Source: a virus. Taken from it: DNA of 35,681 nucleotides. Positions within the stretch are counted from its first letter, which is position 1, and each line of letters begins with the position of its first letter. The notes under the pieces were generated by a model. The model made no database searches. It saw nothing but the letters and a program-made list of their open reading frames with translations, and was not told the DNA's origin. The position numbers and the translations under genes were made by a program. The DNA is taken from the UHGV virus genome UHGV-0164984; one strand, 5' to 3'. Below, in pieces: positions 1 through 16,532 of the stretch.

Positions 1-262
1 CATGGACCTGCAAAACGGTACGACGCTGGAACCCTGACTGAAAGCCGCCGTGCGTCAGGAATACGCCGATTCTAACCAGGTGAAAGTTAATGACGATGGC
101 AAATTTAATAATGATGTGGCTGGAACCCGTGGCGTTTATCAGGCTGGGATAAGGTCATCGTTTACCCCGACGTTAAGCGGTCATTTGTCAGTCAGCTATG
201 GCAATGGCGCAGGGGTAGAATCGCCGTGGAATACTCAGGCGGGTGTGGTCTGGACGTTCTGA
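1..262 (+). CDS. 3' end of host outer-membrane beta-barrel / autotransporter-like protein (partial, continues upstream of window)
   Basis: Frame open from window edge to TGA at 260-262; C-terminus ...GVVWTF ends in an aromatic residue as in OMP beta-barrels; converges on the tRNA fragment; lies outside the att junction. Confidence 0.45.
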
Positions 263-323
263 TAACAAAAAATAAACAGGCTGTGATGTGTCACGGTCTG
301 TTTATCGAATTAATTGCAGATAT

Positions 324-356
324 AAAAAAAACCAACCGTAAAGGTTGGTTTTTTCT
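324..356. terminator. Bidirectional intrinsic terminator between host gene and tRNA fragment
   Basis: A-run, stem ACCAACC (331-337) / GGTTGGT (343-349), then T-run 350-355. Confidence 0.6.
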
Positions 357-365
357 TGGGATTTT

Positions 366-414
366 TGGTCGGCACGAGAGGATTTGAACCTCCGACCCCC
401 GACACCCCATGACG
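366..414 (-). tRNA. Partial tRNA-Pro, 3' terminal 49 nt only (prophage attR-type core copy)
   Basis: Reverse complement reads CGTCATGGGGTGTCGGGGGTCGGAGGTTCAAATCCTCTCGTGCCGACCA, which matches my recollection of the 3' part of E. coli tRNA-Pro(GGG) from anticodon loop through CCA; sequence 5' of it (415 onward) does not continue a tRNA. Confidence 0.65.
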
Positions 415-943
415 CCGCTTATAAACTGCTGAGAACCGCACCATTTCTGATGTTAGGTACTATTCGCATGTATAAACAAACAGTGCTTATTTAGCAAAAT
501 CTGCTCTATGTACATCAATGACTTAGGTGGTGGTTTCTCCCCATCATCTTTTCAAGAATCACCTCAGATTGGACCGTGCATATAGGTAACTCAATCAAAT
601 CTGTAGAACAAATCGTACAATACCATATTGAGTGTTGGATGTTGGCGACAGCCCGTCTGGCAGTCATCTTGCTTTTATATGTCCCAGATAATCGCCTTCT
701 GTTCCGGCATGTGACTAAAATGCGTTCTTCGTTCATAGCAGCATACCCCTTGTTAAAGGATTACGTTGCATCGACCAGTTTAACGCATAACTCGACGCTG
801 ACGTTTTGTTTTTGAAAATGAGCTGGTTTGACATTTTTCTGAAAATTATAATGACATTAAGATTAATAAAATATATATTTCAAATAGAAATGCAAGGAAT
901 GTGTTTTAAAATGTTTACTTTCTGTTTTGAGTTAAATACAAAA

Positions 944-1720
944 ATGAAAAAATTTAAGAAACACTGTATTGGTTGTGATAAAAAAATGAAGAATCCAACT
1001 AAAGAACATTTTTGGCCCAAATGGCTTATCAAACATACCAAAATGGAAAAACACAAAATAGCTTGGTTTAACGGAAAGAGAATACCGCCGTTAACTGCCA
1101 CAATCCCTCTTTGTGCGGAATGCAATTCAGAATTAGGAGGGAAGTTAGAGGATCCAATGAAGAATCTCTTAATTGATATTGAGTCTGGTAAAGGGATATC
1201 CGATAACGAAGCTGAGGTATTTATCCGATGGGCTTGGAAAATGGAAGGATTCTCATGGAGATTGGTTCTACCTGATGGGAATTATTCATCTGTTTATACA
1301 GTTAAAGATAGGGTATTAAAGAAAATAGATCAAATTAGAGGTGAACTGGTTTTAGCTATAGCCCTTGTCGAAGATGCATACGAGGGAAGAGAATATCTTC
1401 CGATGGGATTATGCAACTTCAACGAAGTCAATGCAATCATTGTATCAGGCGTTATAGGCCATGTGGCTTTTATTGTTCTTACTGAAGATCAAATTGGTAA
1501 ACTGCCTATAAATTATTCTTATTATAGATTAAATCCCTTGCGTGATAATTTGGGGGACGCAAAACTTTTTTATCCAGCGATTGGATTCAAAACGTTTCGT
1601 CAGGCACAAAATTTAACAAGATATGCTGCGCAATTAATATCCTATTCTCTTGATAAAGAGAAAGGTGACATTTTCAAACAGATAGAAAGAGAAGAAAACG
1701 GCAATGTTATCGTTTATTAA
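944..1720 (+). CDS. AT-rich cargo protein with N-terminal HNH-like zinc-ribbon nuclease motif and unknown C-terminal domain
   Basis: ORF 806-1720; plausible ATG starts at 890, 911 or 944 (806 is TTG). Motif CIGC...KEHFWPKWL...IPLCAECNSELG resembles CxxC...EH...CxxC of HNH nucleases; strongly AT-rich versus flanks; sits between att and int. Confidence 0.55.
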   Translation: MKKFKKHCIGCDKKMKNPTKEHFWPKWLIKHTKMEKHKIAWFNGKRIPPLTATIPLCAECNSELGGKLEDPMKNLLIDIESGKGISDNEAEVFIRWAWKMEGFSWRLVLPDGNYSSVYTVKDRVLKKIDQIRGELVLAIALVEDAYEGREYLPMGLCNFNEVNAIIVSGVIGHVAFIVLTEDQIGKLPINYSYYRLNPLRDNLGDAKLFYPAIGFKTFRQAQNLTRYAAQLISYSLDKEKGDIFKQIEREENGNVIVY

Positions 1721-1841
1721 TTTTTAATAAATTGTGTTGAATTTAGTGTTTGTTTTTAATGATTGAGATTTAAATTATTTTAAGATAGACCAAATCTTGG
1801 TGACTAAATCTAAAATAAAAATTTTTATAATCTCATCTTTT

Positions 1842-1881
1842 GGCATAGAGCTACCTATCCAATCAGGATTAACTCTATGCC
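1842..1881. repeat. 9-bp perfect inverted repeat (GGCATAGAG / CTCTATGCC) with 22-nt spacer, downstream of int
   Basis: Directly read at 1842-1850 and 1873-1881; no adjacent U-tract on either strand so not a classical terminator. Confidence 0.4.
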
Positions 1882-1928
1882 ACTTTAATATTCCAAAATC
1901 CAAAGAAATTTATTGTAGAGAGGGGTTC

Positions 1929-3107
1929 TTAACCAGTTTGAATTTCTCCATGGGGAACAACAACCCAATCTATATGGTTTTGCGTGTAGATCTTCGTCGA
2001 CTTCGCATCGCTATGCGCCATTCGTCCTTGTGGATCAATGCCTTGCTGATCGAAAAGATGCGCTGCTAATGCTCTAATTTCGTGAAAGGTTGGCCTTTCA
2101 TCCATCAGAAGATTGTCGCATAAACCTAACTTGTCGCGCGTAGCTGAAAATGACCGACTCAAATAGTCTGGTGCAACCTGAGTGGGGTGTGAAACCTCTT
2201 TGCTGCGTTTAACCTGCCGTTCTGGGAGCCTGTGAACGACAAACGGACTGGCCACATTATCTCGGCTATCGTCAATTATCCGTTTCAACTCTTCACCAAT
2301 TGGTATTGCAACGTGTGATGCCTCTTTTTTTTGCACTTTTTGCCTGTGGATGTAAAGCGTCCCATATATGCCATTTTGTGGTTGTTCGAACCAGACACAT
2401 CCACATATACCGTCTTTAGGTTCGCGAATTGAGTAACGGATTCGCGATACTTCGAGTCGTGCATGTGTAGTCTGCAATGCTAGGTCCATTGCTGTTCTTA
2501 ACCATGGTGCAGCGGCCTGCCTGATAGCTATAAAATGCTCGAGTGACAGGCGCCGTCTTTTCTTCTCATCAGTCCTACGCATTTTTTTTCTGATGGCCGG
2601 GTTATCCAGCATTAGTGATTCATCGACCGCATAAGAGAACAACTTTTTAAGAAAGCTGACCTTTCTGTTCTGCACATTTGCGGATGCGCTGGCATGATAT
2701 TTGTTGATGTAGGTATTAACGTGTTCAAGTTCGATATCGCATGCCGGAACATTTACGAAAAACGCTTTTACGCGTAGAGCGTCATTTTTCCAGTCATCTA
2801 AGGTGCTTTGGGAAGGACGTTCGTCTTCGATAATCCGGGTCATTATGTGATCAACATGTTCAGCAAATGGTTTTGCTTCTCCGATAACACCGCCAGATTC
2901 TCTAATAAGATTATCTACTGATGGAGATAATTCTGGTCGCATCCTCAGGTTGTACTCTCTGGCGATTGCAATGGCTATTGCCCTATCCTTACCTATATTT
3001 TTCTTCTTTCCGGTAATAAGTGTGAATTTATAAACACCTCGATCTTTATCAAAAATCAGATAATCAGGAAGATGTCTGTATTCTTTTTTACGTGGCCTTG
3101 CCGCCAT
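1929..3107 (-). CDS. Tyrosine-type site-specific integrase
   Basis: 392-394 aa ORF beside att and xis; C-terminal region with conserved R/H/Y-type catalytic residues (…HSDAKSTKIYTQ); second ATG at 3107 has GAGGG SD at 6 nt. Confidence 0.9.
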   Translation of the reverse strand: MAARPRKKEYRHLPDYLIFDKDRGVYKFTLITGKKKNIGKDRAIAIAIAREYNLRMRPELSPSVDNLIRESGGVIGEAKPFAEHVDHIMTRIIEDERPSQSTLDDWKNDALRVKAFFVNVPACDIELEHVNTYINKYHASASANVQNRKVSFLKKLFSYAVDESLMLDNPAIRKKMRRTDEKKRRRLSLEHFIAIRQAAAPWLRTAMDLALQTTHARLEVSRIRYSIREPKDGICGCVWFEQPQNGIYGTLYIHRQKVQKKEASHVAIPIGEELKRIIDDSRDNVASPFVVHRLPERQVKRSKEVSHPTQVAPDYLSRSFSATRDKLGLCDNLLMDERPTFHEIRALAAHLFDQQGIDPQGRMAHSDAKSTKIYTQNHIDWVVVPHGEIQTG

Positions 3108-3109
3108 GG

Positions 3110-3319
3110 TCATCCCTCATTTATTAACTTGCGAACAGCTTGACTAACCATTGAGTCGACTCCCCATTTTTCTGTTTCGCAGACAAAAACAGAACCGTCC
3201 ACGATGCGTCCCATGAGTAGACCGTTCTCGACCCAGCGTTTTATCGTTCGGTTGTCAGGAATTGAGCCATTAGAGAATTCACGGCGTCCCCATTGGCTCG
3301 CTTTCATTAGTTTTGCCAT
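3110..3319 (-). CDS. Excisionase (lambda Xis-like winged helix)
   Basis: MAKLMKASQWGRREFS...TIKRWVENG... parallels lambda Xis (…LQEWNARQRRPRSLETVRRWVREC…); GGAG SD 8 nt upstream of ATG at 3319; stop adjoins int start. Confidence 0.7.
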   Translation of the reverse strand: MAKLMKASQWGRREFSNGSIPDNRTIKRWVENGLLMGRIVDGSVFVCETEKWGVDSMVSQAVRKLINEG

Positions 3320-3380
3320 GGCTGTTTCTCCACTTAGCCCGCTGCACTCGGGCAGTAATATCAAATTCCAGTCCTGATAA

Positions 3381-3596
3381 TTAATTTTGTTCTCTGGTTG
3401 CTACCTGTTTTATTGGCCTGATGCTGTCCAGGATCAGACGGCGACGCATGTTTGGCGCACCCCAACGGTAACCAGTCTTTTTGTCGTAGGATTCACAACG
3501 TCCGGCAACCCAGGACGTTTCAGTGGAATGTAATTTCATCCGCTTTTCACCGTCTCGGGTGATAACAATTCCTGTATGAGTTTTTATCACGCTCAT
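3381..3596 (-). CDS. Hypothetical small prophage protein
   Basis: 71 aa ORF in the leftward operon, start overlapping the upstream gene stop. Confidence 0.45.
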   Translation of the reverse strand: MSVIKTHTGIVITRDGEKRMKLHSTETSWVAGRCESYDKKTGYRWGAPNMRRRLILDSIRPIKQVATREQN

Positions 3597-3955
3597 TTCT
3601 TAGTCTCCGGTGCTTTCGGCATTACTGCCCAGTGAGTGATATTGACGTTTTCAAGGTCCCCGACCTGAAATGTCCACTGCCATTCTCCGGTTTCTTTTTG
3701 CCCCCATGTGTACCAGAGAGAACGCCAGCCAATCAGCCAGCCTTCTCCACTAGCATCAAATAACAGAACACTTTCATTTGCTGGTGGCAGTTCAGCTGAC
3801 ACTGGTATTATTTTGTTTTCCAGTGCCGCACATTTAGCTTCAAGCGCGTTGAATTTACGTACTAGGTACTCAGCATTTGTTTCGTTCACTTTCAGATCTC
3901 GCGGTACACATTTCCCGCGAAGAAACCCTTCCATTTCGAAAACATTCATGCGCAT
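3593..3955 (-). CDS. Hypothetical prophage protein
   Basis: 120 aa ORF, Trp-rich C-terminal half, overlaps neighbouring gene ends (operon). Confidence 0.5.
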   Translation of the reverse strand: MRMNVFEMEGFLRGKCVPRDLKVNETNAEYLVRKFNALEAKCAALENKIIPVSAELPPANESVLLFDASGEGWLIGWRSLWYTWGQKETGEWQWTFQVGDLENVNITHWAVMPKAPETKK

Positions 3956-4482
3956 TTGCGTAACTCCGATAACTCGTTAAAACGTTCCATAAACATCCCG
4001 TAGGCCTGGCCCGGTGCCAGTGGAATCACGTTGAACATCTCTGTTGCCGGGATGCCTTCCAGTACAGGCCAGAAAGAGCCATCATCAAGCCCGAGATCGC
4101 GGCGTTCGGTTGCCAGCATGATGAGATCGGCATATTTCACATGCGTGCTCATAACCGGGGGTAACCCGTATTTCTCACGGATTACGGCGTCTATTTTTTC
4201 TTCCATCCGTTTATAGTCAGGAAGAAGGCGTTTCAGTGGAGCCGGGATGTCCTGGCAATACGCTTCTGTTGCATCATGCATTAACGCTTCAAAAGCAAAT
4301 TCCTGCGGTACCAGCTGGCTGCAAAGCACCGCATGTTGGGCGACGCTGTAGAAGTGTGAAAGATGTCCTGCAAAGCGACAGATATTTGAAAGGGAAACCG
4401 CGATATCGTTAATAACGATGTCGTCTTTATTTATCCTGTCATAATAAAAATGCTTCCCGGAAAAAGTTTTAATAAATGACAT
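3946..4482 (-). CDS. HD-domain metal-dependent phosphohydrolase
   Basis: His...HD motifs (FAGHLSH...LMHDATEAY); ATG at 4482 preceded by GGAGA SD; ORF track extends to a GTG at 4509. Confidence 0.8.
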   Translation of the reverse strand: MSFIKTFSGKHFYYDRINKDDIVINDIAVSLSNICRFAGHLSHFYSVAQHAVLCSQLVPQEFAFEALMHDATEAYCQDIPAPLKRLLPDYKRMEEKIDAVIREKYGLPPVMSTHVKYADLIMLATERRDLGLDDGSFWPVLEGIPATEMFNVIPLAPGQAYGMFMERFNELSELRKCA

Positions 4483-4606
4483 TTTGTTCTCCACGTATAT
4501 GCGCTGCACCGCGCTGAATTCGGGTAAAAGGAAGCCCTCACCGTCCGGCGATTATTGAGTCAATTACATTTCCATAAATGCCCCCGTAGGGGCGGTTAGT
4601 TTCTCC

Positions 4607-4695
4607 ACAAAACAGAGAAGAACACCTGTGGTGGCAGCCGCCCGGATGGATTGGGTTATGAGCCCGTCGTCCGATGATGCTCTTCTCTGTTTTGT
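4607..4695. repeat. Perfect 15-bp inverted repeat (ACAAAACAGAGAAGA / TCTTCTCTGTTTTGT) enclosing 59 nt, within GC-rich ORF-poor spacer
   Basis: Arms at 4607-4621 and 4681-4695 are exact reverse complements; flanked by hairpins at about 4580-4593 and 4706-4739. Confidence 0.6.
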
Positions 4696-4740
4696 AAAAA
4701 GGACGGTACCAGCCGGAAGCAAGGGTACAAGCTGGTACCG
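4696..4740 (-). terminator. Candidate intrinsic terminator for leftward transcripts
   Basis: On the minus strand: stem GGTACCAGC / GCTGGTACC (9 bp, extendable) followed by UUUUU (plus-strand A-run 4696-4700). Confidence 0.45.
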
Positions 4741-4960
4741 CCAAGACAACACACAGCATAAAGTTGTGGTGCCGGGTGCCTCCCGGTGCCTGGCGAAGGT
4801 TGTACACCAGACGGGTGGGTATCCACAGAAGGTCGACTGTCAGCCTCAACCTTAACCCGCGTGCGCTGAGCCGCATTCACCACAACGCTAAGGATTCTCT
4901 CTGGTTGAAAATACTTAGCTGTTATGTGCCTGCTTTTAGCCACATCAGGCGAGGTGGACC

Positions 4961-4995
4961 TGGTTATTCCCCAACAACAAGGATTCGGTATAATC
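4961..4995 (+). promoter_or_regulatory. Candidate sigma70 promoter for rightward accessory operon
   Basis: Perfect TATAAT at 4989-4994 about 30 nt upstream of the first micro-ORF; -35 region weak. Confidence 0.35.
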
Positions 4996-5026
4996 TGGAT
5001 ATCCCAACAACAGGTAGGAAGGAAAT

Positions 5027-5110
5027 ATGTACGTAGATAGCAATGAAAAATTTCATGTTCCGGTAAATCAGAGACCAGCACCGATCCCTGAGCCGAAACC
5101 TGAAATGTAA
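5027..5110 (+). CDS. Proline-rich micro-ORF A (27 aa; MYVDSNEKFHVPVNQRPAPIPEPKPEM)
   Basis: Strong SD AGGAAGG 4-5 nt upstream of ATG; shares an HVP...RP.P.PEPKP motif with two downstream micro-ORFs. Confidence 0.4.
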   Translation: MYVDSNEKFHVPVNQRPAPIPEPKPEM

Positions 5111-5120
5111 GGGAATAGAG

Positions 5121-5600
5121 ATGACTCGAGACGATCTAGCATTCGATATTCATTATTCTTTCTTTCTTGAGAAAATGAATTACACCCTTTTAAATCGGAT
5201 AGACAAGAGCATAACTCTTGTTCTCATTGTCTTGGGCTTTTCTGTTTTTGCGCCATATAGCAATATGTTTATTTTTGGCGCATCTGTAGCTATTTTGTCG
5301 GTGCTTCAATTGGTATACCAATTTGGGCAGGAAGCTGGCTTATCAAAGGAACAGATGCGACAGTATAAAAGGTTGATTGTTGAGTTTTCCTCCCTTTCTG
5401 ATGACGAACTACGCACTCGGTTTTTAAAGGTTCAAGACGCTGATAGTAATCCATGGAGATCTTTACAAGATGCTGCGTTCAAACGGACCTGTATTGCGCT
5501 GGGACGTGTTGATGAGTCAGAAATATCATTCATGCATAGCGTTATCGCATGGTTTGCTGGAGATTTGCCTCGGTCAAAAAGGTGTAATAATGACAAATAG
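5121..5600 (+). CDS. Small membrane protein, two predicted TM helices, unknown function
   Basis: 159 aa; hydrophobic stretch LVLIVLGFSVFAPYSNMFIFGASVAILSVLQLVY; AT-rich; in immunity-adjacent position on strand opposite to cI. Confidence 0.6.
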   Translation: MTRDDLAFDIHYSFFLEKMNYTLLNRIDKSITLVLIVLGFSVFAPYSNMFIFGASVAILSVLQLVYQFGQEAGLSKEQMRQYKRLIVEFSSLSDDELRTRFLKVQDADSNPWRSLQDAAFKRTCIALGRVDESEISFMHSVIAWFAGDLPRSKRCNNDK

Positions 5601-5706
5601 AATTCCCATAATCCCTAACCATGTACCTCCAAAGCCCAGACCACCATCACCAAAGTCACACAGGCTTTATGAGTATGAATTAATAATGGATTCTATATTG
5701 AGATGA
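5590..5706 (+). CDS. Proline-rich micro-ORF B (38 aa; ...IPNHVPPKPRPPSPKSHR...)
   Basis: ATG at 5590 overlaps the upstream gene end; AGGTG SD; motif paralogous to micro-ORFs A and C. Confidence 0.35.
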   Translation: MTNRIPIIPNHVPPKPRPPSPKSHRLYEYELIMDSILR

Positions 5707-5710
5707 CCAA

Positions 5711-5800
5711 ATGAATGCATTTATATATACATGGAAAGAGGATCATATACCCTTAAAACCTCGTCCTTCACCGCCAGAACCGAAGCCAAAATCCCGTTAA
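5711..5800 (+). CDS. Proline-rich micro-ORF C (29 aa; MNAFIYTWKEDHIPLKPRPSPPEPKPKSR)
   Basis: Starts 5 nt after micro-ORF B stop; same HIP.KPRP.PPEPKP motif encoded with synonymous codon differences. Confidence 0.35.
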   Translation: MNAFIYTWKEDHIPLKPRPSPPEPKPKSR

Positions 5801-5837
5801 GTGTTGGGGATCTCCAGATTGTTAAAGAGCGAAGCGT

Positions 5838-5866
5838 CCTATAGGGCGCTTTTTTGTTGCTAACGA
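5838..5866 (+). terminator. Intrinsic terminator ending the rightward accessory operon
   Basis: Stem AAGCGTCC / GGGCGCTT with loop TATA, followed by TTTTTTG. Confidence 0.5.
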
Positions 5867-5929
5867 ATCATCCTGGACTTCATATGCCCCAGGCGGCTAC
5901 TTCGTGGGCGTCCTGCCTGTTCGTTGTTT

Positions 5930-5970
5930 CGCTTGGGTACATTATGTATCTCAAAGGTACATTGTCAAGT
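5930..5970 (-). promoter_or_regulatory. Candidate pL-like early-left promoter with CI operator half-sites
   Basis: On minus strand TTGACA (plus 5963-5968), 16-17 nt, CATAAT/ATAATG (plus 5940-5946); GGTACA half-sites at 5936-5941 and 5956-5961 resemble the cI-cro operators. Confidence 0.45.
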
Positions 5971-5997
5971 ATAAAAAAACCTGCCGAAGCAGGTTCA
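5971..5997 (-). terminator. Intrinsic terminator downstream of cI
   Basis: On minus strand stem AACCTGC / GCAGGTT with loop TTCG then UUUUUUUAU, immediately after the cI stop. Confidence 0.55.
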
Positions 5998-6007
5998 TAA
6001 ACATTGA

Positions 6008-6682
6008 TTAGGCTTTGATTTTGTATCTTCTTGGTTTTCCTGAGAAAATCACTGTACCAATTATAGAGCAATTACCGTTGATCTTAATGTAAGGCTCAGG
6101 CCAGTTTGGGTTTAACGCTTTGAGATAACGCTGTGTCCCATCTTCTATCAACCTTTTGAAGGTGGTTTCACCTGTATCGTGCATCAATGCAATAACGTCG
6201 TCACCGTGGCAGGCAGGTACTTCAGGATCGACAAAAATCATGTCTCCCGGGCGGTACTCATCAATCATTGAATCACCTATCACCCGCAAGATATAAGTCA
6301 TTTCCCCACAGGGTACAGGGCAGGGATACGTTTCTGCTGTGCTCAAATCAACCTCAGAATATCCAACTTCTTTCCATGCTCCGGCCTGTACCCATGATAT
6401 GACAGGGACTAATGTGATTTGTTTATTAGTGATTGAAACATCAGGTTTTTTTGTGATGTTCGTTGTCTGGTGTTCTTGATCGAGCCATCCGACAGGCAGG
6501 TCGAAACATTTTTCGATGTGTCGTGCCATGCTGTCACCGATATTTTTAGTAGCACCATCTCCCATAAACCTGCTGGTCTGGGTTGGCTCGCGATCAATCA
6601 TAGTGGCAAAGGAAGAATTCCCGCCAACACCATCTCTCAGTTTTCTGGCGTTAGACCGCCGGATGTCATGGATTGTTTTCAT
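6008..6682 (-). CDS. CI-type phage repressor (HTH + S24 LexA-like peptidase domain)
   Basis: 224 aa; C-terminal GDSM serine motif and downstream Lys (TFKRL) typical of S24 autoproteolytic repressors; divergent from cro with operators between. Confidence 0.9.
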   Translation of the reverse strand: MKTIHDIRRSNARKLRDGVGGNSSFATMIDREPTQTSRFMGDGATKNIGDSMARHIEKCFDLPVGWLDQEHQTTNITKKPDVSITNKQITLVPVISWVQAGAWKEVGYSEVDLSTAETYPCPVPCGEMTYILRVIGDSMIDEYRPGDMIFVDPEVPACHGDDVIALMHDTGETTFKRLIEDGTQRYLKALNPNWPEPYIKINGNCSIIGTVIFSGKPRRYKIKA

Positions 6683-6688
6683 AACGAA

Positions 6689-6768
6689 ATTAAAACCCTT
6701 GTACCGTTAAGGTACAAGTATCTTGAAGGTTCATTTCAATCATGTAATATGTACACCAGAGGTACATA
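6689..6768. promoter_or_regulatory. Divergent pRM/pR region with palindromic operators
   Basis: Perfect palindrome CTTGTACC-GTTAA-GGTACAAG at 6698-6718; second site ATGTAC-N7-GTACAT at 6749-6767; pR-like TTGAAG (6723-6728) 16 nt TAATAT (6745-6750). Confidence 0.55.
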
Positions 6769-6772
6769 TTGT

Positions 6773-6973
6773 ATGAAAGCGTATTGGGACTCTTTAACCA
6801 AAGAACAGCAGGGCGAGTTGGCCGGAAAAGTTGGCTCAACACCTGGCTACTTACGGCTGGTTTTCAATGGCTATAAAAAAGCCAGTTTTGTGCTGGCTAA
6901 AAAACTTGAGCAATGCACGTCAGGTGCAATTACGAAATCTGACTTAAGACCGGATATCTATCCGAAAGATTAG
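6773..6973 (+). CDS. Cro-like HTH regulator
   Basis: 66 aa ORF divergent from cI immediately downstream of operator region; HTH-like GKVGSTPGYLRLVFNGYKK. Confidence 0.75.
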   Translation: MKAYWDSLTKEQQGELAGKVGSTPGYLRLVFNGYKKASFVLAKKLEQCTSGAITKSDLRPDIYPKD

Positions 6974-7004
6974 CAGAACACTTTCAATTTTTAACCACAG
7001 AACG

Positions 7005-7574
7005 ATGAGGCTAATCGTGGGTAAGCATCACTGGAAAATAGAAAAACAGCCTGAGTGGTACGTGAAAGCTGTCAGAAAAACTATCGCGGCGTTGCCGGGT
7101 GGTTACGCTGAAGCGGCTGACTGGCTCGATGTAACAGAAAACGCTTTATTCAACCGCCTTCGTGCAGATGGCGATCAGATTTTCCCGCTGGGATGGGCAA
7201 TGGTTTTACAGCGTGCTGGTGGCACTCACTTCATTGCTGATGCTGTGGCGCAGTCTGCAAATGGCGTCTTTGTGTCTCTTCCTGACGTCGAGGATGTGGA
7301 CAACGCCGATATTAACCAGCGTCTGCTGGAAGTCATTGAACAGATCGGCAGTTATTCAAAACAGATTCGTTCAGCAATCGAAGACGGTGTAGTGGAACCG
7401 CATGAGAAGACAGCAATTAACGACGAGCTGTATCTCTCAATTTCGAAGCTGCAGGAGCATGCAGCACTTGTCTACAAAATTTTTTGCATTTCAGAAAGTA
7501 ATGACGCCCGCGAGTGTGCAGCTCCGGGCGTCGTGGCGTCGATTGCTTCTGGTTGTGGAGAAACTAACGCATGA
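7005..7574 (+). CDS. CII-like phage regulatory protein (e14 YmfL-like, 189 aa)
   Basis: Position after cro; size and [19 protein letters not shown] segment resemble CII/CP76-type regulators as I recall them; alternative GTG start at 7017 with GAGG SD. Confidence 0.55.
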
Positions 7575-7909
7575 ACAGTTTAACAACACACTACCGTCGC
7601 TCGCAACTGATTGCGCTTCCTGTACCGGGTGGAAAAGCGAAGGTGGAATATTGCTATGCAGTGAATGTACCAGGTGACAGGGAAATTGTAACCCACAGCT
7701 TTGCAGAGTGGGCTGTGGGTGATTTCAACCGGCAGAAGGAGACAGTCCTTTGCGACAAGTTAACCGCTGGTTCAAAGATCACTACGGAGTGCCCGTCAGA
7801 GTCATTCGTTGGGAGCCGGAAACACAACGGGTTATCTACCTCCGCGAAGGTTATGAGCATGAATGCTTCAGTCCGCTCGAACAGTTTCGTCGTAAATTCA
7901 GGGAAATAG
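7571..7909 (+). CDS. Hypothetical protein (e14 YmfM-like size, 112 aa); C-terminal third of doubtful coding quality
   Basis: ORF in operon position; N-terminal two-thirds protein-like, C-terminal part low-complexity; an alternative-frame ORF overlaps (see findings). Confidence 0.45.
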
Positions 7910-7918
7910 AGGTCGGTC

Positions 7919-8860
7919 ATGAGCACTAAATTAACCGGCTATGTATGGGATGGTTGCGCTGCATCAGGCATGAAGTTATCCAGCGTGGCAATTATGGCCC
8001 GCCTGGCTGATTTCAGTAATGACGAAGGTGTGTGCTGGCCATCAATTGAAACCATTGCCCGTCAGATTGGCGCGGGGATGAGTACCGTCAGAACGGCTAT
8101 CGCACGGCTGGAAGCAGAAGGCTGGTTAACGCGTAAGGCGCGTCGCCAGGGTAACCGCAATGCGTCGAATGTTTATCAGCTTAACGTTGCGAAGCTTCAG
8201 GCAGCGGCATTTTCTCAACTGTCAGATTCTGACCCGTCAAAATCTGACGCATCAAAATCTGACCCGTCAAAATTTGATGCGTCGAAATCTGGCAAAAAAG
8301 CGGGTTTTCACCCGTCAGAATCTGGCGGGGATCCGTCAGTAAAATCAAAACATGATCCGTCAGATAAAAAACCTTCTCGTCCGGACGCTTCGCAACCGGA
8401 CACGCAGACGGCTGAACAGGATTTTTTAACTCGCCATCCTGATGCGGTTGTATTCAGCCCTAAAAAGCGCCAGTGGGGAACGCAGGATGATTTGACCTGC
8501 GCACAGTGGCTCTGGAAAAAAATCATCGCCCTGTACGAGCAGGCCGCCGAATGTGACGGCGAGGTGGTTCGTCCCAAAGAACCTAACTGGACAGCCTGGG
8601 CAAACGAAATTCGCCTGATGTGTGTGCAGGATGGTCGTACTCACAAACAAATCTGCGAGATGTACAGCCGCGTCAGCCGCGATCCGTTCTGGTGCCGTAA
8701 CGTGCTCAGCCCGTCGAAGTTGCGGGAAAAATGGGATGAGCTTTCCCTGCGCTTATCGCCGTCCGTCAGCACGCACACAGAAAAACGTGAAGACCCGTAC
8801 TTCAAAGCCAGTTACGACAACGTGGACTACAGCCAGATCCCGGCAGGATTCAGGGGGTGA
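7919..8860 (+). CDS. Replication initiator (O-like, N-terminal HTH; internal iteron-encoded linker)
   Basis: 313 aa; N-terminal winged-helix-like region (…WPSIETIARQIGAGMSTVRTAIARLEAEGWL…); tandem DNA repeats inside the gene; position after cII-like gene. Confidence 0.75.
   Translation: MSTKLTGYVWDGCAASGMKLSSVAIMARLADFSNDEGVCWPSIETIARQIGAGMSTVRTAIARLEAEGWLTRKARRQGNRNASNVYQLNVAKLQAAAFSQLSDSDPSKSDASKSDPSKFDASKSGKKAGFHPSESGGDPSVKSKHDPSDKKPSRPDASQPDTQTAEQDFLTRHPDAVVFSPKKRQWGTQDDLTCAQWLWKKIIALYEQAAECDGEVVRPKEPNWTAWANEIRLMCVQDGRTHKQICEMYSRVSRDPFWCRNVLSPSKLREKWDELSLRLSPSVSTHTEKREDPYFKASYDNVDYSQIPAGFRG
8231..8373 (+). repeat. Iteron-like direct repeats (putative replication origin) inside replication initiator gene
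   Basis: About 15-bp units GACCCGTCAAAATCT / GACGCATCAAAATCT / GACCCGTCAAAATTT / GATGCGTCGAAATCT (8231-8290), further CCGTCAG-containing copies to about 8373, followed by A-rich stretch. Confidence 0.6.
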
Positions 8861-8862
8861 TC

Positions 8863-9351
8863 ATGAGTCTGTTAAATGACGTTCAGAAATTCATTGAAGC
8901 CCATCCGGGGTGTACTTCCGGAGACATTGCGGATGCTTTTGCTGGTTACTCACGGCAGCGCGTTCTGCAGTCAGCAAGCAAGTTACGTCAGAGTGGGCGT
9001 GTGGCTCACCGTTGTGAAGGAGATACACGCAGACATTTCCCGCGCCTGACTGAGAGAGCGCAGGAACCGGAACCACAACCAGTTCGTGAAACCAGACCTG
9101 TGCGCAATTTCTATGTCGGCACTAACGACCCGCGGGTGATTTTGTGCCTGGCCCGCCAGGCGGAAGAACTGGAGTCCAGGGGCTTATTTCGTCGTGCTGC
9201 AACCGTGTGGATGGCGGCATTCCGTGAAAGCCACTCCCAGCCAGAACGAAACAATTTTCTGGCGCGTCGTGAGCGGTGCTTACGGAAAAGCAGCAAGCGC
9301 GCTGCATCGGGTGAAGAGTGGTATCTGTCAGGGAATTACGTGGGGGCTTAA
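8863..9351 (+). CDS. Putative transcriptional regulator with PerC-like C-terminal region
   Basis: ATG at 8863 with GGGGG SD; C-terminal LARQAEELESRGLFRRAATVWMAAFRESHSQPERNNFLARRERCLRK resembles the PerC/Pch family as I recall it. Confidence 0.5.
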   Translation: MSLLNDVQKFIEAHPGCTSGDIADAFAGYSRQRVLQSASKLRQSGRVAHRCEGDTRRHFPRLTERAQEPEPQPVRETRPVRNFYVGTNDPRVILCLARQAEELESRGLFRRAATVWMAAFRESHSQPERNNFLARRERCLRKSSKRAASGEEWYLSGNYVGA

Positions 9352-9677
9352 TGACGACGTTAACTCAATGCCAGCAGCAGGTGCTGGATATGCTGATTTC
9401 TTATCAGAAAGAACGTGGCTTCCCACCAACCAATCAGGAGGTGGCAACCATGCTGGGATACCGTTCGGTGAATGCAGCGGTGGAGCATCTTCGTGCTCTG
9501 GAGAAAAAAGGCGTCATCACGATAAAGCGTGGCGTGGCCCGGGGGATAACGCTTCATACCGCGGTGAAGGACGACGACAGCGAGGCGGTCGGGATTATCC
9601 GCTCACTGCTTGCCGGTGAGGAAAACGCCAGGCTGCGTGCAGCCCACTGGTTACATGAGAGGGGCCTGAAAGTATGA
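9351..9677 (+). CDS. LexA N-terminal DNA-binding-domain-like protein (no peptidase domain)
   Basis: LTQCQQQVLDMLISYQKERGFPPTNQEVATMLGYRSVNAAVEHLRALEKKGVI parallels the LexA winged-helix domain; TAATG stop-start overlap with upstream gene. Confidence 0.6.
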   Translation: MTTLTQCQQQVLDMLISYQKERGFPPTNQEVATMLGYRSVNAAVEHLRALEKKGVITIKRGVARGITLHTAVKDDDSEAVGIIRSLLAGEENARLRAAHWLHERGLKV

Positions 9678-10063
9678 AGCTTATTCTGCCTTTTCCGCCC
9701 AGCGTGAACACGTACTGGCGACACCCCAACAAAGGGGCGTTTGCTGGTAAGAGCCTGATAAGCACGGCGGGGCGAAAATTCCAGAGCGCGGCGTGCGCAG
9801 CAATAGTTGAGCAGTTACGTCGTCTGCCGAAACCAACGTCGGCACCTGCTGCAGTGGAGATCGTGTTGTTTCCACCGGATAACCGGATCCGCGATCTGGA
9901 CAACTATAACAAGGCGCTGTTTGACGCCCTGACCCACGCGGGTGTGTGGGAAGACGACAGTCAGGTGAAAAGAATGCTGGTGGAGTGGGGACCGGTTATC
10001 CCGAAAGGGAAGGTCGAGATCACTATCAGTAAGTATGAGAAACCGGCGGGTGCAGCCGCCTGA
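9674..10063 (+). CDS. RusA-family Holliday junction resolvase
   Basis: 129 aa; LPFPPSVNTYWRH...DLDNYNKALFDALTHAGVWEDDSQV matches RusA signature with catalytic Asp cluster. Confidence 0.85.
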   Translation: MKLILPFPPSVNTYWRHPNKGAFAGKSLISTAGRKFQSAACAAIVEQLRRLPKPTSAPAAVEIVLFPPDNRIRDLDNYNKALFDALTHAGVWEDDSQVKRMLVEWGPVIPKGKVEITISKYEKPAGAAA

Positions 10064-10082
10064 TTAAGAGGAGAAACGAAGT

Positions 10083-10880
10083 ATGAATAATCTGATGGTT
10101 ATTGATGGTATTGAAGTTCGTCGTGATGCTTATGGGCGTTACAGCCTGAACGATCTGCACAGGGCTGCCGGTTCTCTGGATAAGCATAAGCCTGCATTCT
10201 GGCTCCGCAATGAGCAAACTGAACGTTTAATAAGCGAGTTGCAGATTTGCAACTCGGTCAATATAGAGCCAGTTAACGTTATTCGTGGCGGAAATAACCA
10301 GGGGACGTATGTCTGCAAAGAACTGGTGTATGCCTATGCAATGTGGATAAGCCCGTCATTCCATCTTAAGGTGATCCGTACTTTCGACATGGTAACCAGC
10401 GCACCGGAAAAATTATCCGGACAGGCTGCTGACAAGATGCAGGCTGGTGTGATTCTGCTGGACTTTATGCGCCGGGAATTAAATCTGTCTAACTCTTCAG
10501 TGCTTGGTGCCTGTCAGAAACTCCAGGAGGCTGTTGGCTTACCGAATTTGGCACCGCGCTATGCCATTGATGCTCCTGCTGACGCGCCTGATGGCTCAAG
10601 CCGCCCCACGCTGTCACTGAGTGCACTGCTGAAGCAGTATGGTATCCGCCTGACAGCTAATCAGGCATATCACCAGATGGCGAAGCTGGGGATCGTTGAA
10701 CAACGTGAACGATACAGCCGCACTGCGATTAACAACATCAAAAAATTCTGGTCGCTGACGGCGAAAGGCTGCATGTTCGGCAAAAACATCACCAGTCCCG
10801 CAAATCCGCGCGAGACGCAGCCGCATTTCTTCGAATCCCGATTCCCTGAGCTGTTAAAGCTGCTCGATACCGTTCATTGA
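10083..10880 (+). CDS. KilA-N domain protein (antirepressor-like)
   Basis: N-terminal YSLNDLHRAAG...KPAFWLRNEQTERLI is the KilA-N signature; C-terminal domain unknown. Confidence 0.75.
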   Translation: MNNLMVIDGIEVRRDAYGRYSLNDLHRAAGSLDKHKPAFWLRNEQTERLISELQICNSVNIEPVNVIRGGNNQGTYVCKELVYAYAMWISPSFHLKVIRTFDMVTSAPEKLSGQAADKMQAGVILLDFMRRELNLSNSSVLGACQKLQEAVGLPNLAPRYAIDAPADAPDGSSRPTLSLSALLKQYGIRLTANQAYHQMAKLGIVEQRERYSRTAINNIKKFWSLTAKGCMFGKNITSPANPRETQPHFFESRFPELLKLLDTVH

Positions 10881-10881
10881 G

Positions 10882-11877
10882 GTGACCGTGAGAGCACTAC
10901 TGACCCCTGAAATTGCCCCGCGTATGGGGATCGTATTGTTCAGGCCAGGTTCAGAGCTGATGCCCCTGTTTATGCAGGGGCGTGTCCTGCTGGAGCCTGA
11001 GCCGGAACGTTACTCATCTTTCGCCAGTGGTGCCGTTCCGGCGGCATCACAACCGCTGGCGGATGATCCTGCCGTTCGGGCCGTGTTCCGCAATGAGGCA
11101 GTGATCCGTCGTGCTGGTGGCGTGGAATGTCTTGAAAGCTGGTTACTTCGTGAAAAAGGCTGCCAGTGGCCTCATTCCGACTGGCACAGCGAGAACATGA
11201 CCACAATGCGACACGCTCCGGGCGCAATCCGTCTGTGCTGGCACTGCGATAACCAGCTGCGCGATCAGTTCACGGAACGGCTGGAATCAATGGCAACGGA
11301 TAACTGTGCCCGCTGGGTGTTGTCTGTTGTGCGTCGGGATCTCGGTTTTGATGACAGTCACGTTGTGACAATGCCGGAACTGTGCTGGTGGTTGATTCGT
11401 AATGATCTGGCGGATGCCTTACCGGAAAGTGCAGCCCGTAAGGCACTGAGATTACCGAAGCCTGTTGTGCCATCTGTCACCCGGGAAAGTGACCTTGTGC
11501 CTTCGGTTCCTGCCACCAGCATCATCCAGGATAAAGCGAAAAAGGTGCTGGCGCTGAAAGTGGATCCGGAGTCGCCGGAGTCTTTTATGTTACGCCCAAA
11601 ACGTCGCCGCTGGGTTAATGAAAAGTACACGCGCTGGGTTAAGACGCAGCCGTGTGCATGTTGTGGAAAGCCTGCTGATGATCCCCACCATCTGATAGGC
11701 CACGGTCAGGGGGGAATGGGTACAAAAGCGCATGATCTCTTTGTGTTGCCTTTGTGCAGAAAGCATCACGACGAGCTGCATGCGGATACCGTGGTATTTG
11801 AAGAGAAGTATGGCTCCCAACTGGAGCTGATATTTCGTTTTATCGATCGTGCGCTGGCAATTGGCGTGCTAGCCTGA
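10882..11877 (+). CDS. DUF968-family prophage protein with C-terminal Cys/His cluster
   Basis: 331 aa; C-terminal PCACCGKPADDPHHLIGHG...LCRKHHDELH; typical of the lambdoid Nin-like region. Confidence 0.7.
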   Translation: MTVRALLTPEIAPRMGIVLFRPGSELMPLFMQGRVLLEPEPERYSSFASGAVPAASQPLADDPAVRAVFRNEAVIRRAGGVECLESWLLREKGCQWPHSDWHSENMTTMRHAPGAIRLCWHCDNQLRDQFTERLESMATDNCARWVLSVVRRDLGFDDSHVVTMPELCWWLIRNDLADALPESAARKALRLPKPVVPSVTRESDLVPSVPATSIIQDKAKKVLALKVDPESPESFMLRPKRRRWVNEKYTRWVKTQPCACCGKPADDPHHLIGHGQGGMGTKAHDLFVLPLCRKHHDELHADTVVFEEKYGSQLELIFRFIDRALAIGVLA

Positions 11878-11894
11878 TTTTGTGGAGAAGGTTG

Positions 11895-12242
11895 ATGCGT
11901 GATATGTATGAAGTATTGGAGCGCTGGGGAGCATGGGCTACAGCAGATAATAGTGGCGTGGACTGGCAGCCGATAGCAGCAGGCTTCAAGGGGCTTTTAC
12001 CTCATGGCAAAAAGTCCCGGATTCAGTGTGATGATGATGAGGGGCTCATGATCGATGGGTGCGTAGCTAGATTAAGAAAGTACAAACCAGAAGAGTATGA
12101 ACTTATCGTTGCCCATTTTGTTATAGGAGTATCAATACGTACCATTGCAAAGAAAAGGAAATGTTCAGATGGGACTGTCAGAAAAGAATTGCAAGCCGCA
12201 ATTGGATTTGTGGAAGGCGTATTTAGTATTTTAAATATGTAA
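11895..12242 (+). CDS. Late-gene antitermination protein Q
   Basis: LERWGAWA...VDW...GFKGLLPHGKKSRIQCDDDEGL...IAKKRKCSDGTVRKELQ resembles Q-antiterminator family; precedes lysis region. Confidence 0.7.
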   Translation: MRDMYEVLERWGAWATADNSGVDWQPIAAGFKGLLPHGKKSRIQCDDDEGLMIDGCVARLRKYKPEEYELIVAHFVIGVSIRTIAKKRKCSDGTVRKELQAAIGFVEGVFSILNM

Positions 12243-12257
12243 GGGGCGGTGCCCCTT
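12230..12257 (-). terminator. Weak hairpin terminator between Q and the convergent MBL gene
   Basis: Stem AAGGGGC / GCCCCTT (12241-12257) with a U-rich stretch on the minus-strand side. Confidence 0.35.
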
Positions 12258-13347
12258 ATAAGCAAACAGCAGCGTAATGTGTTTCAACCTTAGGACTAGA
12301 CGTTAAGCAATTACTAACAGCAACTATTCCAAATTTATTGTTATTATTTGAAAATGAAACTGAACTTTTCATCTTCGCTAATATGCTCCGTGCTTCAGCA
12401 ATCGCAGGTGATTTTTCTTGAGCGTTATCACTTTTAGGCATCGATGTACAGTATAATGCTGATGATTTTGATTTGTAGAGGTCGATCATATCCTGCCGTG
12501 GTAGTGATGATTTATCATAAGTGGTTAAAATCGAAATAGGGTCTTTTTTGATTAGCTTGTTCCATGTTTCCTCATGAAAGCCTGTTTGGGAACCGTGGTG
12601 TGGAAGTTTGAAAATACCTGCTAAGTTTGGTTCTGGACGATTTATTGCATTGCAAACGGAATTCCATCCAGTGTTTTTACTAACTTCTAAATCTGCGCCT
12701 AATAATACTTCATTATTTTCTGATGTTGGAGAGCATATTCTGATTACAACGCAGTAGTGATTAGGATTAACTAATTTAGCAGACATGGCTATTTCGCTAA
12801 AATTTGATGATAATTTTGTAGAGTTTGCGAATTCAAGATCAGAGTTTGTTATATCCATATCAGAAGGCGATAACGAATGTACTTGAATATTCTCGCTGCT
12901 TTTGAATAGTATGCAGTCTTTTTTTGCATGGACAAGACGATCATTTTTGTGCAAATCATAGAATAAAGACATGACCTTGTTTATTTCTTTAGTTTTTGCC
13001 ATATCCTCACCATTAACACTTAGTGCATTAATATATCCTCTAAATTCAGATGTGTTCAATGCTGCGCTAATTACAACTTTTGCATTTTTGCAACTATTAA
13101 TAATTTCGGCTATCCCTTTAATATGATCATCGTGAAAATGACTAATGACTATCAGTTTTACTTCATCTTGTGGATTAACACCTTTTTCTTTCAGATAATC
13201 TAATGCTGCGGGGCGTTTATTATCATTTAAACAGGAATCAATAATCATCCATTCATTTAACCCAAGACGAACGACAATTGATTCGCCAATACCTTTACCA
13301 AAAACAATTGTTTCACAGATAGAGTTTTGAACAGTAGGCACCTGCAT
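12256..13347 (-). CDS. Metallo-beta-lactamase-fold hydrolase (distal gene of AT-rich cassette)
   Basis: 363 aa; HxHxDH motif SHFHDDH encoded at 13123-13143; additional His (KLPHHGSQ); AT-rich. Confidence 0.8.
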   Translation of the reverse strand: MQVPTVQNSICETIVFGKGIGESIVVRLGLNEWMIIDSCLNDNKRPAALDYLKEKGVNPQDEVKLIVISHFHDDHIKGIAEIINSCKNAKVVISAALNTSEFRGYINALSVNGEDMAKTKEINKVMSLFYDLHKNDRLVHAKKDCILFKSSENIQVHSLSPSDMDITNSDLEFANSTKLSSNFSEIAMSAKLVNPNHYCVVIRICSPTSENNEVLLGADLEVSKNTGWNSVCNAINRPEPNLAGIFKLPHHGSQTGFHEETWNKLIKKDPISILTTYDKSSLPRQDMIDLYKSKSSALYCTSMPKSDNAQEKSPAIAEARSILAKMKSSVSFSNNNNKFGIVAVSNCLTSSPKVETHYAAVCL

Positions 13348-13370
13348 TCACCGTATTGCGTAATTTCTAA

Positions 13371-13943
13371 TTATTGTTTAAAAATTCTTCTTAGGCGAAA
13401 TTCGGATACTCTTTTTTCTTGTCCAAATAAAGTTTTTTCCATACCAACATACCAATAAAAAATAGCGTTTTCGACAAGTTTTTGTTGATCGCTTTTACTA
13501 AATTCATCTGAAGAGAACGTTATCTCATCAATGAATTCATGAGAGTTTATATCATATACTCTAGCATGTATTTCTTTATTTGATTTCATATTGACAATTT
13601 TGTCAATTATACCATAAGTATCTAATGCCTTTTCAAGAAAGGTTATTTTTTCTTTAAGTCTTGCCTTGAGTTTTTTATGCTGAGTTCTATTTTTCACTCC
13701 TTTTTGTGTAGATGGGAATGGTTGCGGAGTAGGTATTTCAATTATATTTGTTGAATATTTTGAGCTGCAAGTTTCTTGCTGCTGTTCAAATGTTTCAGAA
13801 TAATTTTCAAAACCTGTCTTAATTATACAGGAAAGAGTTATGTTGTGGGTCTTTACAAATGTTTCAATGTTTTTTTCTTTTTTTGTTACGCAACGTGTAT
13901 TACTAAGGCTGGAAGAATTTTCAGGATAGGTTAATATATTCAT
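13371..13943 (-). CDS. Hypothetical protein (middle gene of AT-rich cassette)
   Basis: 190 aa ORF; start overlaps the upstream gene stop (ATGA at 13940-13943), implying translational coupling. Confidence 0.65.
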   Translation of the reverse strand: MNILTYPENSSSLSNTRCVTKKEKNIETFVKTHNITLSCIIKTGFENYSETFEQQQETCSSKYSTNIIEIPTPQPFPSTQKGVKNRTQHKKLKARLKEKITFLEKALDTYGIIDKIVNMKSNKEIHARVYDINSHEFIDEITFSSDEFSKSDQQKLVENAIFYWYVGMEKTLFGQEKRVSEFRLRRIFKQ

Positions 13944-14695
13944 GATAGAATCCGCTTAAACATTTGTTCATGGCTGAGGATATCATTCTTAATTGCTGCG
14001 GAAATATGTTTTTGAATTATATTTGGGAGTAATTGAGTGAATGCAACAGCGTCACGAATATCTTTCAAAGCTAGATCGTGATTGTATTGAACGTTTAAAC
14101 CAAATACATCTGGACTAACTTTTCTATACGAAGCATAAGAGACATTGATAGCCTCTTTGTAAATTGATTTATCTTCCTTGTTAGAGTTTTCTATTGCAAT
14201 GACTAAATTTCTCATCCCATAATGATATTCAACTTCATCCTGAAGTATTTCTGATTTATTGTGTTCTTGCCAATAAATTTTGGGGACTAATGCATCTCCT
14301 AACTGATTCCAGTTGGTTTCATTATTAAAATGATAATCAAAAAGGGTGTTTATTCCAACAGCTTGTGTCTCAGAATGAGGAAACATAGAAAATATTGATG
14401 ACACTAAGTCTGCCAAGGAATTTTCAAGCCCTGTTTTTTTCAGTTGAAATACTACTTTTGTTGGTATGCACGTAATCTCAATCCAACCGTAATCTGTTGT
14501 TATTGAATCACCATCAAAAGTTGTGTTTGAATTTGCTATATCTTCCTCTCTTAGCAAATCGTATCTTCTAAACCATTCAGATGAAAACATCAATGGAGTA
14601 ATGATGTTAGAGATCCATACAACATTAATCGTATGCTTAATAAGTTTGAAAGTCATAAATTGTTCTTGGCCCTCAGAATGAAAACCTAAGTGCAT
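13940..14695 (-). CDS. Hypothetical protein (first gene of AT-rich cassette)
   Basis: 251 aa ORF; alternative ATG at 14656 preceded by GAGGG; no recognisable motif. Confidence 0.65.
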   Translation of the reverse strand: MHLGFHSEGQEQFMTFKLIKHTINVVWISNIITPLMFSSEWFRRYDLLREEDIANSNTTFDGDSITTDYGWIEITCIPTKVVFQLKKTGLENSLADLVSSIFSMFPHSETQAVGINTLFDYHFNNETNWNQLGDALVPKIYWQEHNKSEILQDEVEYHYGMRNLVIAIENSNKEDKSIYKEAINVSYASYRKVSPDVFGLNVQYNHDLALKDIRDAVAFTQLLPNIIQKHISAAIKNDILSHEQMFKRILS

Positions 14696-14861
14696 TTAGG
14701 CATAGCTACCGCACGACTGTTTTTAATAAAACAATCCGATTGATAGCTATAACCTATTGATGTCTAACGTTATAGTGCATAAGAAACATAGCAAAAATCT
14801 AACGCGTACGCAAAAATTCTTGTAATCTGTTAAGAGTGGTTACTTTGCCACGCAGATTAAC

Positions 14862-15838: not shown

Positions 15839-16214
15839 GCTGGTTATCGCTGCATTCTTCTTTACTGTCATCGGTTCTTTCATCTGGTCTGCCAACCACT
15901 ACTACAGCAAATATCAGCACGAAAAGAAACGTGCTGATGAGGCTGTACAAAATGCTGAATCTGCAACAGCCATTACCCGTAACGTCCTGCAATCACTGCA
16001 AATCGTCAATACAGTTATAGAGGTTAACCAGCATGCAAAACAGCAGATCGCACTGGAGTCACAGAGAACCCAGAAAGATATCAAAGTGGCTGTTGCGGAT
16101 GATGATTGTGCTGCACGCCTTGTGCCTGCTGCCGCTGCTGAGCGGTTGCGGAAGTACGCGGACAGTTTACGTACAAGTTCCGGCAGTACCACTCCCGACG
16201 AATCTGATCGCTGA
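15822..16214 (+). CDS. Rz-like i-spanin
   Basis: N-terminal TM segment, coiled-coil-like body, start overlaps endolysin 3' end. Confidence 0.8.
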   Translation: MKLSYKLVIAAFFFTVIGSFIWSANHYYSKYQHEKKRADEAVQNAESATAITRNVLQSLQIVNTVIEVNQHAKQQIALESQRTQKDIKVAVADDDCAARLVPAAAAERLRKYADSLRTSSGSTTPDESDR

Positions 16215-16530: not shown

Positions 16531-16532
16531 GA

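Follow-up and report, generated by a model that had tools for sequence, protein, structure and literature searches.

Evidence for a prophage attachment core in a displaced 3' fragment of the Escherichia coli tRNA-Pro gene proL

The virus genome UHGV-0164984 is represented by a stretch of 35,681 nucleotides, which we refer to as a whole as the window. Near its left end, at positions 366-414, lies a segment that an initial annotation had taken for the 3' portion of a tRNA-Pro gene, left at the junction between a host chromosome and a prophage. The analysis presented here makes it very probable that this segment belongs to an attachment (att) core, positions 358-414, at the junction nearest the integrase of a prophage, some 39-41 kb long, that occupies the E. 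coli proL gene between yejM and yejO. The prophage contains e14- and P27-like genes and encodes a contractile tail. Its left boundary is set to the base, with the core at 358-414 and the junction at 414/415. proL is a documented integration site for prophages and islands (PMC4924310, PMC8767318) and is among the prophage sites of Shiga toxin-producing E. coli O121:H19 (PMC8767318).

The reverse complement of 366-414 reads CGTCATGGGGTGTCGGGGGTCGGAGGTTCAAATCCTCTCGTGCCGACCA. When this sequence was aligned with the intact tRNA-Pro(GGG) called by ARAGORN in the locus record of E. coli MLI107 (L001, 42123-42199), it was identical at 49/49 positions to proL positions 28-76, including the CCA. With up to 3 mismatches permitted it occurs only once in the window, and it had 0 matches in 100 dinucleotide-preserving shuffles. 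The assignment to the 3' portion of a tRNA-Pro, which had been made from recognition of the sequence, is therefore borne out by exact identity to a named gene.

The fragment is not accompanied by the rest of a tRNA. ARAGORN called no tRNA anywhere in the window. A narrow Rfam scan of 141 nt gave the tRNA model RF00005 a score of 15.0 bits on 369-414, compared with a gathering score of 29, and the alignment on these positions is without a D arm and an anticodon arm. The minimum free energy fold of the 79 nt that a tRNA would fill contains no cloverleaf, and shuffled sequences reach energies that are just as good (z = +0.63). Neither the broad and narrow Rfam scans nor ARAGORN (window and relatives) revealed a complete tRNA at the integrase-end junction, and the four-arm cloverleaf scoring above the family threshold that characterizes a functional tRNA is lacking at 366-414. 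These results agree with the claim that the site is without a complete tRNA. A complete fold had been named beforehand as incompatible with that claim; it was looked for with ARAGORN and Rfam and was absent.

We searched a set of 5426 complete E. coli genomes with window 300-546 as the query. The great majority match only query positions 1-115, that is, window 300-414, and the feature beneath these matches is an intact tRNA-Pro. Since the matches to the native locus end at query position 115, the native locus and the window diverge exactly at 414. The alignment with the intact copy ends there too, as the initial annotation had proposed. An uninterrupted site (attB) was then assembled in silico from window 1-414, the 5' part of the MLI107 tRNA and the yejM flank. 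This sequence is contiguous, with many strains at 100% identity and with at least 80% in one place in 3784/5426 genomes, so that the two host flanks are seen joined at the core in other strains. The comparison with an uninterrupted proL thus upholds the reading of the site as a host/prophage junction. The polarity that had been claimed is also correct: left of 414, on the 3' side of the fragment, are yejO and the terminator native to proL, and on the 5' side are prophage genes.

The identity to the intact copy is more extensive than had been recognized. It continues for 8 nt past the CCA (AAAATCCC) and yields a 57-bp perfect direct repeat, the 57 nt of window 358-414 being exactly those of L001 42115-42171, with no extension past 414. 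Weaker homology to the intact-copy end of MLI107 proceeds through the terminator to 325 (91% over 91 columns). Of the 49-nt shared segment given in the initial annotation, the tRNA part therefore stands and the length does not; the perfect repeat has 57 bp and the imperfect one about 90 bp, because the phage also supplies a terminator. The host terminator, a hairpin at 326-354, is bordered by an A-run and, opposite, by a T-run and could act in both directions. Thousands of genomes have it as a component of their native proL locus, and a simple terminator scan of the window did not list it. The terminator supplied by the phage, as read in the relatives, is of similar design, CCAGCC...GGCTGG followed by a T-run. 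A direct comparison of the two terminators, window 325-357 with L001 42083-42114, finds them homologous, the 91% over 91 columns including the core. The homology of the phage terminator to the native one suggests that attP, the attachment site of the phage, may derive from a captured proL 3' region that reaches beyond the tRNA fragment alone.

The opposite end of the prophage can be examined in related lysogens. The junction is present at 99.3-100% identity in five complete genomes, those of MLI107, LH09-a, LD91-1, USDA-ARS-USMARC-50748 and E203449. In MLI107 an intact tRNA-Pro is found on the same strand, 39.8 kb to the right, where it adjoins yejM, and the phage side of this far junction holds a DinI-like gene and a DUF262 gene. 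The distance to the far junction is 38.3 kb in both LH09-a and USDA-ARS-USMARC-50748 and 40.1 kb in LD91-1, in each case with an intact tRNA-Pro adjoining yejM in the same orientation. In the complete set, the integrase-end junction, consisting of terminator, core and arm, is found in 115/5426 genomes, and the intact-tRNA junction, consisting of the DinI-like gene, tRNA-Pro and yejM, in 103. The prediction that an intact tRNA-Pro lies to the right of the window at a distance of about 40 kb therefore holds for the four closest lysogens (38.3-40.1 kb); the far end in the source strain is situated beyond its contig.

That contig, NODE_1 of ERZ654576 in ENA (243,636 bp; L011), was identified by an exact match to the tail-fibre protein encoded at 34705-35631 and is 100% identical to window 24705-35681. 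It ends 2511 nt past the window, inside the transposase gene of an IS3-family insertion sequence (IS), and no tRNA is found in these 2511 nt, up to the contig end in the IS. The element (HTH_Tnp_1 orfA; L011 13025-13488) lies about 2.0-2.5 kb past the right end of the window and is inserted in the DUF262/GmrSD gene of the prophage. Homology of the contig to MLI107 reaches the edge of the IS, where L011 13024 corresponds to L001 39998. Because the contig ends in the IS, a second copy of the core is not visible on it, and this lack is purely technical and uninformative. To judge from the relatives, one would expect the intact tRNA-Pro on a different contig, separated from this point by the remainder of the IS and about 2.1 kb more.

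A series of steps would account for this arrangement. The attP would comprise a copy of tRNA positions 28-76 with the 8 nt that follow, together with a terminator hairpin belonging to the phage. The lambda-Int-type integrase encoded at 1929-3107 would have recombined this site with the host proL, with strand exchange most likely in the anticodon loop. At the far end, the 5' part of the host tRNA, the 3' part from the phage and the phage terminator would together constitute a functional proL adjoining yejM. The host 3' part and the native terminator would have been displaced by about 40 kb; they now abut the phage arm, which is followed by a cargo gene, int and a putative xis. The int gene is at the partial-copy end, as had been claimed, because in attP it sits on the tRNA-5' side of the core and points with the tRNA fragment; in the window the two are indeed transcribed in the same direction. 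The designation of this junction as the partial-copy, attR-type end is correct under the tRNA convention. Under the lambda convention the int-proximal junction would be attL.

These features may be compared with the definition of an element that targets tRNA genes, namely a regenerated tDNA together with a displaced 3' fragment (Islander/Williams, PMC4383910). The fragment in the window is displaced and without the rest of the gene, and the integrase gene lies inside the element. An intact cognate tRNA at the other end, with the fragment downstream, is seen in the four closest lysogens, and the source contig ends before this point. The corresponding attP is seen in the phages Eeyore and Flotzy, which are relatives and not the identical phage.

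The integrase itself has the architecture expected of a heterobivalent recombinase. Its N-terminal arm-type DNA-binding domain, PF09003, scores 26.7 bits against a cut-off of 22, and over its full length it matches the lambda Int structures 5j0n and 1z1g (E 6e-11), in an alignment that begins at residue 3. The motif TFHEIRAL aligns with TFHELRSL of lambda and provides HxxR, and the C-terminal MAHSDAKSTKIY gives the H and the Y. An Arg is one position off the lambda R212 column, there is no Lys in the K235 column, and PF00589 alone, at 20.8, is below its cut-off of 27.1. The catalytic series R...HxxR...H...Y is recognizable in spite of the low PF00589 score and the absent Lys. The small open reading frame (ORF) directly upstream, 3110-3319, is annotated as hypothetical (WP_001096409.1) in all relatives and has a weak helix-turn-helix match; its position and size are those of a putative excisionase.

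On the phage side of the junction, the similarity between variant prophages and the window is kept to about 546 and is lost thereafter, and the arm defined in this way, 415-546, aligns with the attP of Eeyore and Flotzy. It holds a candidate arm-type site for the integrase, within a conserved block ATGGGGA(G/A)AAACC, and an element at 513-525 that matches the consensus for integration host factor (IHF). In the opposite arm, as read in MLI107, Eeyore and Flotzy, there are three tandem repeats of the form GGGGA/T-A-rich, a short motif, at a spacing of 11-12 bp. Both the arm-type sites and the IHF site are plausible. An unannotated ORF of 73 codons, 515-736 (-), overlaps the arm; its part past 546 is without conservation in other prophage variants, and for this reason it is probably spurious.

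The position of strand exchange may be approached through the limits of the identity block. The first position of the block lies on the anticodon stem's 5' strand and is C28 in prophages of the window type and C31 in those of the Eeyore, Flotzy and APEC O78 types; the block extends past the CCA. In the part of a preprint that cites Williams 2002 (bioRxiv 10.1101/2020.11.02.365908), identity from the anticodon stem through the tRNA's 3' end denotes the class in which strands are exchanged in the anticodon loop. The block at proL has this extent, and the T-loop is also inside it. Because the block starts in the anticodon stem, as in the anticodon-loop class, we propose the loop at 404-410 as the overlap region, and strand exchange there is probable. 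On either side of the loop the anticodon stem forms an imperfect inverted repeat.

The attP was rebuilt in silico from the two phage arms and compared with phage genomes. It matches the isolated temperate coliphages Eeyore (PP925821) and Flotzy (PP925827) at about 78% identity over the terminator, the tRNA fragment and the int-side arm. The two phages have integrases of the same family as the window, that of Eeyore being 77% identical to the one in the window. In both genomes tail fibre genes are followed by DinI-like and UmuD-like genes, a terminator hairpin, the 3' fragment of tRNA-Pro, about 140 nt of sequence and finally int; Eeyore additionally carries a DNA invertase. They differ from the window in that identity to the tRNA extends from C31 rather than C28 and ends 3-4 nt past the CCA, and in the absence of a cargo gene between arm and int. 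A literature search found no mention of phages Eeyore or Flotzy.

Comparison with two cryptic prophages of E. coli K-12 shows that an integrase may be placed at either end. CP4-6, at thrW, resembles the window in having an intact tRNA at one end and a partial copy at the integrase end. Its repeat starts from tRNA position 28 and consists of 49 nt of thrW and 11 nt downstream (60 bp), and the partial copy, at the far end, is 110 bp from intF. However, the tRNA of CP4-6 is that for Thr, its intF is unrelated to the window integrase at the sequence level (BLASTP E 0.26), and intF is transcribed away from the junction whereas int of the window is transcribed towards it. DLP12, at argU, is like the window lambdoid, inserted in a tRNA gene and equipped with an int that reads towards the att site. 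Unlike the window it has its integrase at the intact-copy end, intD being 15 bp from the intact argU and convergent with it. Neither IntF nor IntD of K-12 has detectable sequence similarity to the window integrase. The proL target between yejM and yejO is shared with a P4/CP4-57-like island, the gtrIC island of Shigella flexneri 1c (and E. coli 042) (PMC4924310). In S. flexneri 1c, by contrast, the integrase is of another family and is located on the yejM side, 210 bp downstream of an intact tRNA; this strain no longer has attR (PMC4924310).

The recombination machinery may also be compared with that of lambda. Both enzymes are heterobivalent tyrosine recombinases with an N-terminal arm-binding domain, and in both cases int is oriented towards attP. 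The candidate arm-type repeats also appear lambda-like in number, with one site in one arm and three in tandem in the other. The two Int proteins are only about 24-26% identical, however, and the target of lambda is intergenic whereas that of the window is a tRNA gene. Further, the P'1-3 sites of lambda adjoin int, whereas the three tandem repeats seen in MLI107, Eeyore and Flotzy appear to be int-distal. A stretch of 78 nt in Gifsy-2 (NC_010393.1, 44256-44334) is 91% identical to the phage-type terminator and the last ~43 nt of tRNA-Pro. Gifsy-2 is not known to integrate at proL, and the stretch may be a relic of an att module gained by mosaicism.

Certain points weigh against the interpretation of the site as the attachment core of a prophage at proL, or limit its reach. 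For the source strain, it is from relatives that are 97-99% identical that an intact copy and an undamaged right end are deduced. The crossover position and the protein-binding sites are read from sequence pattern only. Finally, the structural module is mosaic and occurs also in prophages at other sites.

A priori, the site might instead be a complete but divergent tRNA-Pro, a chimera of a phage 5' half and a host 3' half that is possibly expressed. The NCBI Prokaryotic Genome Annotation Pipeline (PGAP) does place a 78-nt tRNA-Pro at the equivalent position in E. coli APEC O78 (L002, 3365-3442) and in about a dozen other genomes. In addition, the heptamer TGGTGCG (437-443, -), which is in near-tRNA register 32 nt upstream of C31, could pair with the 3' acceptor strand by 4 Watson-Crick and 3 G-U pairs, and the APEC O78 type gives 6 Watson-Crick pairs and 1 G-U pair. 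However, ARAGORN finds no tRNA at the junction in either the window or APEC O78, the Rfam tRNA model scores 15.0 and 18.1 bits in the two, respectively, with the cut-off at 29, the junction fold shows no cloverleaf (z = +0.63), and the free phages are without the acceptor complement. This alternative is highly improbable. When the phage flank was aligned globally and semi-globally as a decayed tRNA 5' half, the result was no better than with shuffles in every variant (p 0.2-0.9), and the idea was rejected. The acceptor-strand complement alone stands out, only in some variants, and this signal is weak and unexplained. The tRNA-Pro that PGAP places in the shortened proL prophage of APEC O78 is probably an over-call of a chimeric pseudo-tRNA. 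It is a notion that we consider very improbable that the phage arm beside the core is not arbitrary and that the junction yields some tRNA-like RNA, for example one that ends read-through int transcripts at the 3' side and serves as a signal for processing or stability, or a chimeric or decoy tRNA. If it were true, attP would have arisen by capture of the whole proL locus, the phage terminator being homologous to the native one.

The junction might also be a fossil, in which the partner repeat has been lost or the prophage has become defective, for example by IS-mediated rearrangement, and the fragment is a dead scar. In favor of this notion, the DUF262/GmrSD gene near the right end is broken by the IS3-family element, where the source contig stops, and shortened remnants are known at the proL site: APEC O78 has one of ~16 kb, and EC20-4B-2 has a deleted form. 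However, the window is fully equipped with genes for lysogeny, replication, lysis, head and tail and has an intact int, and the homology to MLI107 continues to the edge of the IS. Present-day competence for excision is presumed. A copy of an IS is moreover a normal cause of a break in a short-read contig and implies no deletion. We regard a fossil junction as very unlikely, and it would in any case bear on the present-day activity of the prophage and not on the identity of the fragment. There remains the bare possibility, of negligible likelihood, that the resemblance is due to chance or that the phage carries a tRNA remnant that has nothing to do with integration. If the fragment were of such origin, one would hardly observe 49/49 identity with 0 matches in shuffles, a left flank that is the native region downstream of proL, and a breakpoint at 414 that is reproduced in thousands of genomes. 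Chance or an unrelated remnant is refuted by the identity, the empty site and the breakpoint data. The coordinates of the attachment core and of its surroundings are collected in Table 1.

Table 1. Features at and near the integrase-proximal junction, in window coordinates.
Feature	Position	Strand	Basis or remark
yejO 3' end, host autotransporter gene, last 70 codons	50-262	+	yejO annotation in all matching E. coli genomes
Hairpin just past the yejO stop codon	272-305	+	inverted repeat, 15-nt arms, 87% complementary
Native proL terminator hairpin AAAAAACCAACC / GGTTGGTTTTTT, host DNA	326-354	-	inverted repeat, 12-nt arms, 100% complementary
57-bp att core, perfect direct repeat common to the intact-tRNA junction of related lysogens	358-414	-	exact identity with MLI107
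Displaced 3' fragment of tRNA-Pro(GGG) proL, positions 28-76 including CCA	366-414	-	exact identity; not a complete tRNA
Anticodon loop ATGGGGT, presumed 7-bp strand-exchange region	404-410	-	inference from start of identity block
Phage arm of att site, integrase side, P-arm-like	415-546	-	conserved in proL prophage variants and free phages
IHF-like element CATCAATGACTTA (ATCAA-N4-TTA), conserved in Eeyore and Flotzy	513-525	+	read from sequence
Candidate arm-type integrase site ATGGGGAGAAACC	532-544	-	conserved in window, APEC O78, EC20, Eeyore, Flotzy
AT-rich cargo gene between att arm and int, 258 aa	944-1720	+	
Lambda-Int-type tyrosine integrase with arm-binding domain	1929-3107	-	PF09003, lambda Int structure match, PGAP annotation
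Small ORF directly upstream of int, 70 codons, putative excisionase	3110-3319	-	position and size

On the host side, the hairpin that follows yejO is probably the terminator of this gene. On the phage side, the gene at 944-1720 is not part of the recombination machinery. Its product has an HNH-like N-terminal domain and a C-terminal domain without assignment. The protein has no match in Pfam or PADLOC and belongs to a small gammaproteobacterial family; a confident AlphaFold2 model (predicted local distance difference test, pLDDT, 89.5) gave no Foldseek match in PDB. A homologue in Vibrio parahaemolyticus lies in an apparent integron-cassette array. A duplicated int 3' end was considered as the route by which the cargo was inserted and was rejected; only chance matches of 8-9 nt were found.

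To the right of 3319 a full lambdoid region for regulation and replication is followed by a lysis cassette and by genes for head, contractile tail and baseplate, and many prophage genes bear e14 gene names in the PGAP annotation. The prophage of MLI107 is 99.2% identical to window 1-12226. The segments 12227-14788, 15775-17377 and 29635-29675 have no counterpart or a weaker one in this prophage, which is otherwise 97-99% identical. The tail module is also found in prophages at other chromosomal sites, and none of the complete E. coli genomes is identical across the whole window; the prophage is thus mosaic in composition. A cargo block, 12256-14695 (-), lies downstream of the Q antiterminator and has three ORFs that encode a 363-aa protein of the metallo-beta-lactamase (MBL) fold and proteins of 190 and 251 aa; it stands in place of a different two-gene block in MLI107. 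The 363-aa protein matches the PADLOC models RTasMBL (DRT) at 4e-12 and LmuA at 2e-7, and the block may be a defence system.

As a whole, these results describe an ordinary, textbook junction of a prophage with a tRNA gene, at a documented site and of a kind that is already known. The junction itself reveals no new biology, and its value lies in the annotation of the prophage boundary: the integration site is named as proL, between yejM and yejO, and the place of the other boundary is predicted. The presence of the integrase at the partial-copy end is no anomaly. It results from how the core is oriented relative to int in attP, and E. coli K-12 has examples of both placements of the integrase.
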